Source of the DNA: a virus
Lineage: Duplodnaviria > Heunggongvirae > Uroviricota > Caudoviricetes
Length of the DNA stretch: 8,918 bases
IMG/VR virus record: IMGVR_UViG_2534682329_000008
Reading direction: 5' to 3' (one strand)
Shown: positions 3,497-6,364 of the stretch, one piece after another
How the letters are laid out: every line of letters starts with the position of its first letter
How positions within the stretch are numbered: the first letter of the stretch is position 1
Made by a program: the position numbers and the translations under genes
Notes under the pieces: model-generated
What the model was told of the DNA's origin: nothing
Seen by the model: only the letters and a program-made list of their open reading frames with translations
The model's database searches: none

Positions 3497-4042
3497 TCAT
3501 ATTGCCCCCAGCATGGTGGTGACCATCGCCATCAGTGGACCAGCCAAATCCGGGTCCACACGAAACATCGACACAATGCCTTCACTCATCTCCTTCAGTT
3601 TCTGGTGGCGTGGTGCGTTGAGAATGACAGCCTGTTTTGCCTCACTGAGTTCCTTTTCCATTTCAGCCAGCCGAGCCATGTAGCTATCCTGCTCAACCAG
3701 GTGGCCGCGATATTCCAGCGGTAGTACCGCCAGAATTGCCGGGGTCAGTTCACGCACGTTATTTCGGTATTTTTCAGAATCGAATTTGTTATCGAGGAAG
3801 CGGAACAGCTTCTGGCGTGCACGGCTGACATCATCAGGGAAATCGATGGTGCCGCCGCCCTGCTCCCGATACTCATTCACAATGAGTGCGGCAACAACAT
3901 CCTGATTATCTGCAGCCGACCAGGCGCGAACGGCATCACGGATTTTTTCGTGGCCTGGCGCCTGTTTTGTTTGAGAACGATTTATCACCGCAGTCGGGCT
4001 AAATCCGCTAGTCTGTTGGTATGTAAGTGGTTGCATAGTCAT
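3497..4042 (-). CDS. Hypothetical protein in the cII position, downstream of cro; YdaT-like (my assignment is tentative)
   Basis: 181-aa ORF with no recognisable similarity to lambda CII. Its position between the cro-like gene and O, together with a YdaS-type Cro, is the arrangement seen with YdaT-family proteins in Rac-like prophages. Family assignment is from memory of the architecture only. Confidence 0.55.
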   Translation of the reverse strand: MTMQPLTYQQTSGFSPTAVINRSQTKQAPGHEKIRDAVRAWSAADNQDVVAALIVNEYREQGGGTIDFPDDVSRARQKLFRFLDNKFDSEKYRNNVRELTPAILAVLPLEYRGHLVEQDSYMARLAEMEKELSEAKQAVILNAPRHQKLKEMSEGIVSMFRVDPDLAGPLMAMVTTMLGAI

Positions 4043-4066: not shown

Positions 4067-4294
4067 TTAGGCGGCAGAATTACTCGCGTTAAACAATGGT
4101 GCGAGGTCGGGACGAATATCTGCTGGTTTAATCTTTCCACCAGTGGCTGAGACAATTTTCATTACATAGCGGGCATCAATTCCGCCACCGTGTAGCCAAC
4201 GCCAAACTGTGGGTTGGGCTACACCGCATAGATCTGCCAGTCGTTTTTGACTACCTGTAATACTGATTGCGAGTTGAATGGTTTGATTTGTCAT
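4067..4294 (-). CDS. Cro-like HTH repressor (YdaS/Cro family), 75 aa
   Basis: HTH motif …GSQKRLADLCGVAQPTVWRWLHGG… and a C-terminal …GGKIKPADIRPDL… typical of the YdaS/Cro-like family. Divergent from the cI-like gene across an operator region. Start taken at ATG 4294, with SD AGGA 8 nt upstream on the minus strand; the track start at 4300 is a TTG two codons upstream. Confidence 0.75.
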   Translation of the reverse strand: MTNQTIQLAISITGSQKRLADLCGVAQPTVWRWLHGGGIDARYVMKIVSATGGKIKPADIRPDLAPLFNASNSAA

Positions 4295-4300
4295 TATCAA

Positions 4301-4404
4301 TTCCTATTGGTATTGCAATGAATAAATAATAGCAATACGTATTAATCCAAGCAATAGCAAAACGTGTTTTGACCATCAATACGCAAGCGTATAAATTAAA
4401 ACTT
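4301..4404. promoter_or_regulatory. OR-like divergent promoter/operator region: PR-like promoter (minus strand) for cro and PRM-like promoter (plus strand) giving a near-leaderless cI mRNA
   Basis: Minus strand: -35 TTGCTT (4349-4354), 17-bp spacer, -10 TATTAT (4326-4331). Plus strand: -35 TTGACC (4369-4374), 15-16 bp spacer, -10 TATAAA/ATAAAT (4390-4396), placing +1 within a few nt of the cI ATG at 4405, which has no SD. The 8-mer AATAGCAA occurs at 4328-4335 and 4353-4360, and ATTGCAAT at 4312-4319. Confidence 0.55.
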
Positions 4405-5097
4405 ATGAAAAAAGAAACTCTTGCTGATCGCTTAAACCTAGCGATGGAACAATCTGGAATGTCTCAAGGCGCTCTTGCAAAGGCGTCTGGCGTAGCTCAA
4501 CCCACAATCTGGAGACTGACAAGCGGCAACGCTCGCGGCTCAACAAAAATTGTTGAAATAGCTAATGCATTGGGTGTTCGAACAGAATGGCTCTCATCAG
4601 GCATAGGCCCGATGAGAAATGACGGTCAACAATCAGGGAAGCCTGCTGTCAGCCATTCAAAATACTTCAAGATTGACGTTCTTGATATAGAAGTGAGTGC
4701 CGGGCCGGGAGTCATCAACCGTGAGTTTGTAGAAGTTCTACGCTCGGTTGAGTACTCGTTTGACGATGCTCGTCACATGTTCGATGGTAGGAAGGCAGAA
4801 AATATCCGCATCATTAACGTACGCGGTGACAGCATGTCAGGAACGATCGAACCAGGTGATCTGCTGTTCGTTGATATCACGGTTAAATCTTTCGACGGTG
4901 ATGGTATCTATGCGTTTCTGTATGACGACACCGCCCATGTAAAGCGCCTGCAAATGATGAAGGATAAGCTACTGGTTATCTCTGATAACAAGAGCTACTC
5001 ACCGTGGGACCCGATCGAGAAAGACGAGATGAACCGGGTATTCATATTCGGTAAGGTTATTGGGAGCATGCCGCAGACGTACAGAAAACACGGATAA
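4405..5097 (+). CDS. cI: cI-like prophage repressor: N-terminal XRE-type HTH plus C-terminal LexA/S24 autopeptidase domain
   Basis: HTH …SQGALAKASGVAQPTIWRLTSG…; a candidate Ala-Gly cleavage site in the linker (EVSAGPG); S24 catalytic motifs …VRGDSMSGTIEPGDLLFVD… (Ser nucleophile) and …AHVKRL… (Lys). Start placed at ATG 4405 (MKKETLADRL…); the track start at 4369 is a TTG that coincides with the promoter -35. Confidence 0.85.
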   Translation: MKKETLADRLNLAMEQSGMSQGALAKASGVAQPTIWRLTSGNARGSTKIVEIANALGVRTEWLSSGIGPMRNDGQQSGKPAVSHSKYFKIDVLDIEVSAGPGVINREFVEVLRSVEYSFDDARHMFDGRKAENIRIINVRGDSMSGTIEPGDLLFVDITVKSFDGDGIYAFLYDDTAHVKRLQMMKDKLLVISDNKSYSPWDPIEKDEMNRVFIFGKVIGSMPQTYRKHG

Positions 5098-5179
5098 TCA
5101 GCCGCGTGTTGATGAGGCTTTTGGGTAATACGCTGAAGAAAATACCTTATAAAAAATAACATTACGGGAAAGGCAAAAA

Positions 5180-5443
5180 ATGAGTAATAAAACACTTGTT
5201 AAAAAATCAAATAACTGTGTCGATGCATACGCCGACGCGTTTGGCTACTCTTCGTTTGGTGACGGCTCTCAGCGCCTAGGTTCAATTTCTTTTTTTCATA
5301 ATGTAACTGAATGGCCTGTTGATGAAAGTGACGATGTTGAGAACATAAAGTACAACATTGCAACCATTAGAATGCCCGAAGAATTGATGCTTAAATTGGC
5401 TGACTTCATTCGCGACCAGCATGACAAAGCTAAAACAAACTAA
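5180..5443 (+). CDS. Hypothetical 87-aa protein, first gene of an immunity-region accessory cassette (moron)
   Basis: ATG with SD (GGGAAAGG) ~6 nt upstream. Markedly AT-rich relative to flanking phage genes. Co-oriented downstream of cI. No family recognised; the C-terminal segment …IATIRMPEELMLKLADFIRDQ… has a beta-strand/helix pattern faintly reminiscent of a ribbon-helix-helix, but is too short to call. Confidence 0.5.
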   Translation: MSNKTLVKKSNNCVDAYADAFGYSSFGDGSQRLGSISFFHNVTEWPVDESDDVENIKYNIATIRMPEELMLKLADFIRDQHDKAKTN

Positions 5444-5455
5444 TCGTAATTAATT

Positions 5456-5899
5456 ATGAAACACGATTATTACGAAGCTCCAAACCTAAATGATAAAATT
5501 GCAAAGGCGGCAAAATCATTTTGTTTGCACTCCAGTGCGTCTTCCCAGCTAGCAGGTATATCTGGAAAAAGATGGGACATGCTACAATCAAGTGGTAGCA
5601 GTGGGTCTGGGAGTGATAACATGCCTGAAAAAGTTGCAAAACTGGAGTCCGATGTTGCTCATATCAAACGAGACGTTGATGAACTTAAAACAGACGTTAA
5701 AGCTATCGACAAAAATATGATAACTATTCTTGCACGTCTGGACTCTATAAAAGAATCCTTAACAAACAAGCCATCAAGTGATGCTGTCGATAGAAAGATT
5801 TCAGACGCAAAGCTTGCGGTATTGCTTGGTGTTCCAGCAATCATCGCTGCAGGAACAGGACTTTATAAGCTATCAATGTACTTTTTCTTTAGTGCTTAA
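5456..5899 (+). CDS. Hypothetical coiled-coil protein with a C-terminal transmembrane anchor (XhlA-like architecture), 147 aa (or 92 aa if translated from the internal ATG at 5621)
   Basis: Heptad-like charged coiled-coil segment (KLESDVAHIKRDVDELKTDVKAIDKNMITILARLDSIKESL), then the hydrophobic stretch LAVLLGVPAIIAAGTGLYKL near the C-terminus. The first ATG at 5456 has no SD, whereas the internal in-frame ATG at 5621 is preceded by GGAG at 5609-5612. AT-rich. Confidence 0.55.
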   Translation: MKHDYYEAPNLNDKIAKAAKSFCLHSSASSQLAGISGKRWDMLQSSGSSGSGSDNMPEKVAKLESDVAHIKRDVDELKTDVKAIDKNMITILARLDSIKESLTNKPSSDAVDRKISDAKLAVLLGVPAIIAAGTGLYKLSMYFFFSA

Positions 5900-5974
5900 G
5901 AAAATGCTCGCACCCTTGCATTAGGTAAAGCGATTTTTCATTCCCCATTACCCTCGCTCTTAACCAATCATCTA

Positions 5975-6003
5975 AACCCGGCCACCGTGCCGGGTTTTCT
6001 TTT
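5975..6003 (+). terminator. Rho-independent terminator ending the cI-orf87-orf147 operon (t_imm analogue)
   Basis: Stem CCCGGC (5977-5982) / GCCGGG (5989-5994), 6-nt loop, followed by TTTTCTTTT (5995-6003). Confidence 0.75.
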
Positions 6004-6089
6004 GCCCTCCCCTCATCACACACCGTTCAAAAAACCACCACGACCTCACTTCAGTTATCGCTATGCGATGCAAGTCACAAAATTAATTC

Positions 6090-6178
6090 TTTTTGCTATC
6101 AAACATTTAATATCAAAACACATCAACTAATAGCAACAAGTATTGATATCACCAATAGCAATAGCTATTATCACCATA
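6090..6178 (+). promoter_or_regulatory. OL/PL-like operator-promoter driving the rightward (plus-strand) early operon towards gam-bet-exo
   Basis: -35 TTGATA (6143-6148), 17-bp spacer, -10 TATTAT (6166-6171). The same AATAGCAA 8-mer as in the OR region occurs at 6129-6136 and 6154-6161, the latter inside the spacer, with a 7/8 inverted copy TTGCTATC at 6093-6100. Confidence 0.55.
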
Positions 6179-6364
6179 TCGCAACAACACAACGATACGG
6201 CAACCACCTGATTCACCGTTGCGATGACCGTTTAGATCCGCAGCTTGAATTTCAGCAGGCTTCGGGGAGTGCGAGGGGTGAAACGGACGCGTGAACGTCG
6301 GTGTGACCAGCTGAAATTAACTCAACATTTCATACCTCAGTCGCTTCAACGAGGCGGCTTAGTT

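Follow-up and report, generated by a model that had tools for sequence, protein, structure and literature searches.

The window, the whole 8,918-nt stretch of phage DNA that was analysed, contains a divergent pair of regulatory genes, a cro-like gene on the minus strand and a cI repressor gene on the plus strand, which flank three dyads starting at 4328, 4353 and 4378. A second cluster of dyads lies beyond the cI operon. The features are listed below, with predicted operators and promoters named in lambda terms and site scores given in bits.

4067-4294, minus strand: cro-like gene, 75 aa, YdaS-family HTH (Pfam YdaS_toxin, 9.6e-15; P22_Cro, weak; phrog_35, transcriptional repressor)
4299-4314: candidate fourth OR-side site, AATTCCTATTGGTATT, in the cro leader and overlapping the cro Shine-Dalgarno; 13.0 bits
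4326-4354, minus strand: putative PR, -35 TTGCTT (4354-4349), 17-nt spacer, -10 TATTAT (4331-4326), which would drive cro
4328-4343: predicted OR1, AATAGCAATACGTATT, 16-bp dyad lying on the PR spacer and extending over the initial 4 nt of the PR -10
4353-4368: predicted OR2, AATAGCAAAACGTGTT, overlapping the PR -35 by 2 nt and abutting the PRM -35; 14.4 bits
4369-4397, plus strand: predicted PRM, TTGACC-17-TAAATT; 9/12 in the promoter scan
4378-4393: predicted OR3, AATACGCAAGCGTATA, lying on the PRM spacer and -10, at a distance of exactly 25 bp from OR2; 14.1 bits
4405-5097, plus strand: cI repressor gene, 230 aa, with a 434-like HTH N-terminal domain and a LexA-like S24 C-terminal domain
5974-5997, plus strand: intrinsic terminator-like hairpin, 9-bp stem with 6 GC pairs and a T-run, closing the cI-cargo operon directly before OL
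6085-6100: candidate distal OL3, AATTCTTTTTGCTATC
6129-6144: predicted OL2, AATAGCAACAAGTATT, overlapping the PL -35 by 2 nt; 15.5 bits
6143-6171, plus strand: predicted PL, TTGATA-17-TATTAT; 10/12 in the promoter scan; would drive kil-gam-bet-exo
6154-6169: predicted OL1, AATAGCAATAGCTATT, lying on the PL spacer and extending over the initial 4 nt of the -10

The cI protein has 100% identity to its counterpart in phage PhiR30_1 and matched the Pfam families HTH_3 (1.8e-6) and Peptidase_S24 (1.3e-18). Its translation contains the predicted self-cleavage residues Ala99-Gly100, Ser143 (GDSM) and Lys180 (HVKRL). An HTH motif, GVAQPT[IV]WR, is common to cI and Cro, with the version GVAQPTVWRW in Cro, and the predicted recognition helices are QPTIWRL in cI and QPTVWRW in Cro. 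PADLOC and Pfam searches with the two cargo ORFs gave nothing significant.

An earlier note on this DNA reported four exact copies of an 8-mer, AATAGCAA, and these were found at 4328-4335, 4353-4360, 6129-6136 and 6154-6161, all on the plus strand and with no further copy in the window. The spacing within each pair is exactly 25 bp (4328/4353 and 6129/6154). Dinucleotide-preserving shuffles gave an expected count of 0.46 against the 4 observed, in agreement with the previous estimate of well under one per strand. In both host and phage DNA the background density was about one copy per 24-25 kb (host chromosome, 4 unclustered copies in 100 kb; related phage DNA, 49 copies outside OR and OL in 1.17 Mb). 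A motif common genome-wide would have spoken against an operator, and by these counts this one is not common in any meaningful sense. Both the 8-mer and the intergenic DNA around it are AT-rich, and the four copies could in principle have clustered by chance; however, four or more copies were reached in 0 of 200 shuffles, the exact 25-bp spacing is seen twice, and the same sites were found again in six genera. Chance clustering, to which we give practically no credence, is already refuted. Two related sequences had also been pointed out. The inverted copy, matching at 7/8 positions, is indeed at 6093-6100 (TTGCTATC; reverse complement GATAGCAA) and is now reassigned to a conserved distal element, the candidate OL3, within which it lies. 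The second, ATTGCAAT at 4312-4319, is present in the sequence but was rejected as a related operator, as it is unconserved in the ST104 and Klebsiella alignments.

The 8-mer had been proposed as the operator half-site, and it does form part of an operator; it comprises, however, a 6-bp half-site, AATAGC, plus two bases of a 4-bp centre. The functional unit is predicted to be the 16-bp dyad AATAGC-N4-GCTATT, whose half-site is AATA-S-S. Three such sites lie 25 bp apart at OR (4328, 4353 and 4378), and two, also 25 bp apart, at OL (6129 and 6154). The previous list of sites at OR contained the first two and overlooked OR3 (4378-4393), which does not contain the 8-mer. OL1 is a perfect dyad with 0 mismatches and is the top-scoring site of the window (17.4 bits by PWM), and OR1, with 2 mismatches to the dyad, scores highest among the OR sites (17.1 bits). 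The PWM found six dyads of at least 13 bits in the window (five of them at least 14 bits) against 0.12 expected, all within the two intergenic control regions, and no dyad of at least 14 bits in 100 kb of host DNA. Neither 6104-6119 nor 6179-6194, the places for a third OL site in the 25-bp register, gave a match, and such a site was rejected.

The proposed overlap with PR-like and PL-like promoter elements was borne out, as the sites overlap PR, PRM and PL in a lambda-like geometry. This geometry is equal at PR and PL, where the operators share 2 nt with the -35 and 4 nt with the -10, and at PL it is built in and maintained in ST104-type, Klebsiella-type and other OL lineages. The 6129-6169 cluster had been placed upstream of a rightward early operon, and it does lie there; in lambda terms it would be OL/PL, driving kil-gam-bet-exo. 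PR was absent from the consensus promoter scan, its -35 matching only 3/6, and it was assigned purely by geometry. PRM is invariant across genera, while the 7 nt between its end and the cI ATG vary and contain no Shine-Dalgarno. This short distance makes a leaderless cI mRNA probable. Since its -35 (TTGACC) is near-consensus, PRM may not require activation.

The same layout was found in 119 viral contigs and in phages and prophages of Escherichia, Salmonella, Klebsiella, Kluyvera, Raoultella and Siccibacter. The 119 viral loci, many of which are close relatives, were chosen by an exact 22-mer spanning OR2 and the PRM -35, and because this selection covered OR2, the invariance of OR2 in that set is by construction. 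Across 120 loci (1.17 Mb in total), dyad matches numbered 433 at OR, 214 at OL and 18 elsewhere. OR1 lay at -25 from OR2 in 118/120 loci and OR3 at +25 in 116/120. The OL cluster was present in all 73 loci long enough to test, in 30 architectures and at variable distances from cI, and the pair with 25-bp spacing dominates these loci. In alignments, E. coli, Salmonella ST104 and Klebsiella phages have OR1-3 in common but differ in the spacers, and OR2 is invariant across the phages of these three hosts. Among six aligned phages, OR3 is invariant, and OR1 has invariant half-sites around a variable centre. Prophages of Kluyvera, Raoultella and Siccibacter show the same operator pattern. Taken over all six genera, the sites are conserved, whereas spacers and flanking sequence vary.

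Two sister phages, PhiR5_1 and IdasGreatGrand, have a cI whose C-terminal domain is near-identical to that of the window phage but whose HTH is different (VSQAAIQK); the HTH of their Cro is different too (VSQQAVYK). A search of both phages for AATAGC dyads found none. At OL, between otherwise near-identical flanks, a cassette of about 95 bp (window 6083-6177) has been exchanged, and AACAAC-N4-GTTGTT dyads occupy the same places; the same replacement is seen at OR. The sister type resembles the one described here in its common OL flanks and in having 6-4-6 dyads throughout, at three OR sites, at two OL sites and in the leader; it differs in its half-site, AACAAC rather than AATAGC, and in its spacing, 23-24 bp rather than 25 bp.

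The co-replacement of dyads and HTH bears on whether the repeats mark a protein site at all. PL and PR have the -10 TATTAT and the layout in common, and the sites are AT-rich and partly coincide with promoter hexamers, so the repeats might be a by-product of ancestry and composition if PL and PR arose as paralogous copies of one AT-rich promoter module. In the sister phages, however, dyads and repressor HTH have been exchanged jointly, and both the -35 TTGA and the flanks are retained. The sites are also dyad-symmetric, which promoters need not be; OR3 lies over a different promoter with a different sequence yet obeys the same dyad rule; and half-sites are kept while centres and spacers drift across the 30 OL architectures. 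Conservation in an intergenic region of about 110 bp packed with promoters cannot fully part promoter from operator constraint, and we consider promoter duplication as the sole explanation to be very improbable.

A further question is which protein binds the dyads. The motif GVAQPT[IV]WR is invariant in 12/12 intact cI N-terminal variants that accompany these operators, and its presence in both cI and Cro is expected if both read the same half-site. Binding by cI and by Cro is computationally indistinguishable, and as the sister specificity has replaced cro as well as cI, co-variation by itself does not tell which protein the sites belong to; the dyads could thus be bound by one regulator only (e.g., Cro alone, with cI binding elsewhere) or by a third factor, such as the YdaT-like protein in the cII position or a host protein. 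Against this, the ST104 Cro is only 69% identical overall, yet it has the same helix and the same operators, and OR and OL show no further repeated motif. The YdaT-like gene does not co-vary with the sites, because it is common to the sister-specificity phages, which are annotated with the same cII-like protein. We regard binding by a single regulator or a third factor as unlikely and favour operators read by both cI and Cro.

What was established computationally is the sequence and spacing of the sites, how they overlap the promoters, their conservation and the way they co-vary with the HTH, and all computational tests agree in supporting the prediction that these are cI/Cro operators of an immunity specificity other than lambda's. 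Very likely, the repeats are operators through which a lambdoid prophage of E. coli, of the DLP12 family, runs an immunity switch of the lambda kind. From these features we infer binding, an order of affinities, cooperativity, a leaderless cI start and induction. Each 16-bp dyad would be bound by a cI dimer, and by Cro. OR1 and OL1, the best matches, would cover the spacer and first four -10 bases of PR and PL, and cI on OR1/OR2 and OL1/OL2, probably bound cooperatively, would turn both early lytic operons off. Since OR3 covers the PRM -10, high levels of cI, or Cro, would stop cI synthesis. The S24 C-terminal domain (Ala99-Gly100, Ser143, Lys180) would imply RecA-stimulated self-cleavage on induction.

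Two auxiliary sites, weaker but conserved, probably exist as operators in addition to these five. At the leader site (4299-4314), AATTCC-N4-nGTATT persists around a variable centre in Klebsiella, Kluyvera, Raoultella and Siccibacter, a conservation confounded by that of the cro Shine-Dalgarno; the sister specificity has its own leader dyad, AACAACCTCCGTGGTT, with 1 mismatch, in the same place. At the distal OL element (6085-6100), 78 of the 84 loci with an OL pair have AATTCnTTTnGCTATC at a point exactly 44 bp upstream of OL2, and the other 6 have AATTCATTTAATTATC there. Seven variants of this element occur across E. coli, ST104-type and Klebsiella-type OL lineages, whose flanks are unrelated. 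Its right half falls inside the specificity cassette that is swapped in the sister phages, and its left half is a weak PWM match, so that only half of it is a good site. Both auxiliary sites would probably contribute cooperativity or looping. We put forward only tentatively, and with some doubt, a switch with 4+3 operators as opposed to lambda's 3+3, distinguished by the leader site, the distal OL site and an intrinsically strong leaderless PRM. Such a switch could follow a logic different from lambda's; it could repress cro after initiation, by roadblock, and could allow OL-OR looping via the auxiliary sites, and positive autoregulation by cI could be unnecessary.

The switch is well supported but is an ordinary lambda-style one with its own, so far uncharacterised, immunity specificity, and conceptually it adds nothing to the lambda paradigm. 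Its interest lies in a predicted operator code, AATA-S-S in a 16-bp dyad, for a module present in about 13% of complete E. coli genomes (719/5426) and also in Salmonella, Klebsiella, Kluyvera, Raoultella and Siccibacter prophages. This code would predict homo- versus heteroimmunity among these phages. The AATAGC and sister AACAAC types, with their near-identical C-terminal domains, may offer two ready-made repressor/operator sets that are probably orthogonal to each other.

The locus has the make-up of the lambdoid OR/OL class, with divergent genes, a cI with HTH and S24 domains, a second operator cluster at OL, and dyads over the -35 and -10 elements. As in lambda, cI and cro diverge around a tripartite OR and a second operator cluster lies at PL; the best sites are over the lytic -10, OR2 is beside the PRM -35 and OR3 is over PRM; the 25-bp site spacing compares with one of 23-24 bp in lambda; and cI has a probably leaderless start and a LexA-like self-cleaving C-terminal domain, the cleavage being predicted here. 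In contrast to lambda, the operator is the 16-bp AATAGC-N4-GCTATT rather than the 17-bp TATCACCGnCGGTGATA. OL consists of two clear sites and a weak distal one 44 bp away, whereas lambda has three adjacent sites; in addition, the PRM -35 is near-consensus, Cro is a YdaS-family HTH protein, and no N gene lies downstream of PL. Lambda-type operators, TATCACCGnCGGTGATA, had 0 matches in the window with up to 3 mismatches allowed, which upholds the suggestion in the earlier note that the half-site is unlike lambda's operators and belongs to a different immunity group. Look-alikes of the lambda half-site (TATCACC, at 6147 and 6168) were rejected, as they are isolated, form no dyad and have bases that vary among close relatives.

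The phage 434 repressor is the closest solved structure by sequence, although it is only distantly similar; the N-terminal domain aligns to it without gaps (E about 2e-6), with GVAQPTIWRLTSG against GTTQQSIEQLENG. The 434 operator is a dyad in which the outer 4 bp are conserved and the centre is variable, as is likewise seen here. It differs in being 14 bp long rather than 16 bp, and the recognition-helix residues are different. Sites of the type ACAA-N6-TTGT, by which the 434 immunity group is judged, had 0 matches in the window.

Phage HK022, as described in PMC8053113, which cites Carlson & Little 1993, has operators that are adjacent and cooperative, an OL3 placed distally at 53 bp from OL2 and an extra operator beyond OR. 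On that account, the distal OL3 and extra operator would be analogous to the 6085-6100 element and the leader site. The HK022 cI has a C-terminal domain of the same family and an N-terminal domain unrelated in sequence. The HK022 immunity region (cI to nun or cro) contains no AATAGC dyads, and no HK022 operators were found in the window. An immunity the same as that of HK022, which the ST104 annotation suggests, was rejected on the grounds of the different N-terminal domain and the lack of such dyads. HK022 also uses put RNAs and Nun, whereas no put-like element was found here: no HK022/HK639 put core was seen in the window on inspection, and Rfam gave no match. The HK639 annotation had pointed to an antiterminator RNA of the put kind beyond PL on its downstream side, which was rejected here, with a weak HK639 alignment and a fold z-score of +0.9.

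The ST104 repressor type is listed, and no more than listed, as a predicted specificity of its own in Table 1 of the epsilon34 paper (PMC2629481), in which the same specificity is predicted at a repressor identity of at least 92%. The cI described here is 86% identical to the ST104-type cI, below that threshold. Operators of the ST104 type were not annotated in PMC2629481 or in the GenBank records examined; a literature search with the operator strings and for ST64T/ST104 operators returned nothing relevant and no paper describing these operators, and a paper using the PhiR phages contained nothing on their immunity. ST104 differs in being a P22-like phage with gene 24 (the N analogue) downstream of OL, in its other OL context, and in its Cro (only 69% identical). 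It is alike in its recognition helix, QPTIWRL, which is identical, and in having OR1-3 and an OL pair with the same dyads at the same 25-bp spacing. OR2 and OR3 of ST104 are identical to those of the window, OR1 departs from the window's in just two bases, the last of the centre and the innermost of the right half-site, and the OL dyads obey the same AATAGC dyad rule. As the recognition helix and the operators are the same, homoimmunity with the ST104 type is predicted.

The window holds the immunity and early region of a DLP12-family lambdoid prophage at tRNA-Arg (intD), laid out as follows.

minus strand: ren, P and O
3497-4042, minus strand: YdaT-family gene at the cII position (Pfam 'YdaT_toxin' match)
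4067-4294, minus strand: 75-aa YdaS-family HTH protein at the cro position (Pfam 'YdaS_toxin' match)
4405-5097, plus strand: cI, 230 aa (HTH_3 and Peptidase_S24)
5180-5443 and 5456-5899, plus strand: two small cargo ORFs between cI and the terminator/OL, at the rexAB position
5974-5997: terminator-like hairpin in the plus-strand gene series, after the cargo ORFs
plus strand, after the hairpin: kil, gam, bet and exo

In lambda nomenclature, 4300-4400 is OR and 6080-6180 is OL/PL. The 4067-4294 product is a Cro-like repressor and the 3497-4042 product, which RefSeq names 'toxin YdaT domain-containing protein', is a cII-position regulator; the 'toxin' family names are misleading in a lambdoid switch. 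The cargo ORFs match phrog_4231 and phrog_3556, families without assigned function; the second is coiled-coil-like in its middle part and hydrophobic at its C-terminus. The slot after cI is filled quite differently in relatives that share the immunity or the flanks (PhiR5_1 has HipA and HipD, 4A7 an ASCH-domain gene and a Klebsiella phage a ParA-like gene), and PhiR47_2 has GevT/GevA annotated on both sides of cI. The cI-to-OL slot resembles a hot spot for moron or defence genes expressed by the prophage. This prophage also carries emrE and ybcK, cargo typical of the DLP12 family, together with an IS insertion. Next to ren lies emrE, a multidrug efflux gene, and an IS1 InsB-like C-terminal fragment adjoins a ybcK serine-recombinase gene that is apparently cut short, since ybcK is full-length in strain OkiPb01695 (stretches bearing the IS1 fragment, ybcK and emrE: 43-336, plus; 347-829, minus; 1084-1416, minus).

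An earlier note had proposed the 8-mer AATAGCAA as an operator half-site. Its four exact copies are present in the 8918-bp window (starts 4328, 4353, 6129 and 6154, all on the plus strand), where shuffles predict 0.46 copies and none of 200 reached four; the members of each pair (4328/4353; 6129/6154) are 25 bp apart. The inverted 7/8 copy TTGCTATC at 6093-6100 and the related ATTGCAAT at 4312-4319 were also found in the sequence. The same note would have given up its reading had the motif been common genome-wide, and it is sparse, at about one copy per 24 kb of host or phage DNA: across 100 kb of the chromosome of an E. coli strain with a 99.9% identical prophage, four copies occur, none clustered, and 1.17 Mb of DNA from related phages has 49 besides those in the two control regions.

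The 8-mer does belong to a repeated dyad, the predicted operator, but it is not itself the half-site; the dyad, AATAGC-N4-GCTATT, is 16 bp long, and the 8-mer covers its left 6-bp half and the next two bases, which belong to the centre. The dyad is perfect at 6154-6169 (OL1) and has two mismatches at 4328 (OR1), two at 6129 (OL2) and three at 4353 (OR2). A half-site weight matrix revealed OR3 (AATACGCAAGCGTATA, 4378-4393) exactly 25 bp past 4353, overlooked earlier because its half-site is the variant AATACG. Six sites score at least 13 bits, five of them at least 14, with 0.12 expected in shuffles, and the highest scores (OL1, 17.4 bits; OR1, 17.1 bits) fall over the lytic -10 elements. The half-site consensus from 33 non-redundant sites in relatives is A-A-T-A-S-S, with 1.3-1.9 bits at positions 1-4 and a variable, A/T-rich dyad centre.

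Two promoters were predicted by a consensus promoter scan.

6143-6171: PL, TTGATA-17-TATTAT
4369-4397: PRM, TTGACC-17-TAAATT

The PL -35 shares 2 nt with OL2, and OL1 spans the spacer and contributes the first four bases (TATT) of the -10. Exactly this arrangement recurs for OR2 and OR1 on the minus strand, around TTGCTT-17-TATTAT, which by this geometry we take to be PR; its -35 matches 3/6 and did not pass the consensus scan. The proposed overlap of the repeats with PR-like and PL-like elements holds for the predicted PL and, with the same geometry, for the inferred PR. OR2 adjoins the PRM -35, and the PRM spacer and -10 lie under OR3. The cI mRNA of lambda is leaderless. Because the 7 nt between the end of PRM and the cI ATG differ among lineages and lack a Shine-Dalgarno, the likeness to lambda suggests that cI mRNA is leaderless here as well.

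The cro-cI module recurs with 96-100% cI identity in phages PhiR30_1, PhiR68_2, 4A7, Lambda_4C10, D2, 1W, 3W and Perceval, with more distant cI in Salmonella ST104-type (86%) and Klebsiella phages (82%); at least 80% of it is present in 719 of 5426 complete E. coli genomes (~13%). In the E. coli, ST104-type and Klebsiella phages compared, OR1/OR2/OR3 keep their half-sites and 25-bp spacing, while the OR1 centre and inter-site spacers differ. Scanning IMG/VR with a 22-mer spanning OR2 and the PRM -35 gave at least 119 loci, a sample chosen by the OR2 sequence itself and with many closely related members. In the matches listed plus the window (1.17 Mb), 433 matrix matches of at least 12.5 bits belong to the OR cluster and 214 to a second cluster, 1.6-3.5 kb downstream from cI, leaving 18 at other positions; in the same set, every one of the 73 loci that extend far enough downstream has an OL cluster, in 30 distinct architectures with a dominant spacing of 25 bp. 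The flanks of the OL lineages are unrelated and their downstream genes differ (e.g., gene 24 in ST104), yet a single geometry persists, in which operator TT starts the -35 and operator TATT starts the -10. Representative Kluyvera (three species), Raoultella lignicola and Siccibacter colletis genomes have the same OR, with an OL cluster wherever the locus reaches that far. The Klebsiella-type OL (Klebsiella and Raoultella loci L003, 4706-4766; L007, 5427-5487; and L136) has good dyads at three positions (0, +20/+26 and +45), an overlapping double site AATATCAATACGTATTGCTATG, and a distal AATTCATTTAGCTATC element another 24 bp upstream, giving up to four sites; OL operator number therefore varies among lineages of one specificity.

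Two further sites are candidates.

4299-4314: leader site AATTCCTATTGGTATT, 13.0 bits, overlapping the Shine-Dalgarno of the cro leader
6085-6100: distal OL site AATTCTTTTTGCTATC, which includes the inverted 7/8 copy

At the leader site, AATTCC-N4-nGTATT with a variable centre is kept in Klebsiella, Kluyvera, Raoultella and Siccibacter, and the sister immunity type (E. coli phages IdasGreatGrand and PhiR5_1, AACAAC-N4-GTTGTT dyads) has its own-type dyad there with one mismatch. We hold it with moderate confidence as a candidate fourth OR-side site, because conservation of its left half is confounded by the Shine-Dalgarno. The distal site is a candidate OL3 and resembles the distal OL3 of HK022. 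Among the matches listed plus the window, 84 loci have an OL pair; 78 of them carry AATTCnTTTnGCTATC at a distance of exactly 44 bp on the upstream side of OL2, the other 6 have AATTCATTTAATTATC there, and the element takes 7 variants across unrelated OL lineages. Directly to its left, the AT-rich motif AAAATWAATTC (6076-6090) is kept across OL lineages with unrelated flanks; it has a counterpart in the sister specificity (AAAATAAATCC) and a similar motif just past HK022 cI (aaaaataaatttcc, locus L005, about 6425-6412, minus strand), and is not tied to specificity. The ~190-nt leader from the predicted PL start to kil (6178-6364, plus) is nearly unchanged across the two immunity types and starts with a possible hairpin, ATCG-CAACAACACAA-CGAT, similar starts occurring in other OL lineages. 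This leader contained no N-like gene, no Rfam match and no HK022/HK639 put core, and its fold is not unusual (z = +0.9).

The strongest evidence for reading these sites as operators is their co-variation with the repressor. The cI of PhiR5_1 and IdasGreatGrand is near-identical to the window cI from residue ~47 on; before it, their HTH reads LTQKALGDLVGVSQAAIQKIETG where the window has MSQGALAKASGVAQPTIWRLTSG, and Cro differs too. A weight-matrix scan found no AATAGC dyads in either phage, and the window shows no enrichment of sister-type dyads. When the OL regions of both types are aligned, the stretches on either side (window about 6010-6082 and 6178-6260) hardly differ and a ~95-bp cassette between them (6083-6177) is swapped, the substitute having AACAACTTTTGTTGTT and AACAACTATAGTTTTA at matching positions; the sister-type OR has three such dyads (1690, 1713 and 1737 of the sister-type locus L010). 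Two physically separate DNA patches therefore change along with the recognition helices, the behaviour expected of operators. Window cI and Cro have GVAQPT[IV]WR in common in the HTH, and the cI motif is unchanged in all 12 intact N-terminal variants found with these operators, a 13th being frameshifted past the helix. The cI N-terminal domain aligns without gaps to 434 repressor, with QPTIWRL at the recognition helix.

In the switch we propose, every binding step of which we infer at predicted operators, cI dimers on OR1/OR2 and OL1/OL2, probably bound cooperatively, would block PR and PL, and OR3 together with Cro would control PRM negatively. SOS-activated RecA would prompt cI self-cleavage at Ala99-Gly100 via Ser143 and Lys180, and the two auxiliary sites may help to hold complexes of higher order, or looped ones, together.

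The half-site had been called unlike lambda's operators, and indeed neither lambda-type nor 434-type operators were found in the window. Two copies of TATCACC, the consensus half-site of the lambda operator, flank OL1 at 21 bp from each other (6147-6153 and 6168-6174, plus); these copies lack a partner half-site or lambda-type dyad, their bases differ among close relatives, and they are probably coincidental. HK022 immunity was also considered, ST104 cI being annotated as 'similar' to HK022; the common feature is the C-terminal domain family only, and HK022 has no AATAGC-type dyads. The epsilon34 genome paper treats the ST104 repressor as a separate specificity type and does not name its operators (PMC2629481). 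GenBank records of the relatives inspected carry no operator annotation, and the operator strings had no match in the literature searched, subscription-only papers being outside its reach. We take the operator reading to be a sound and well-supported sequence prediction for an uncharacterised, widespread lambdoid immunity specificity, distinct from that of lambda.
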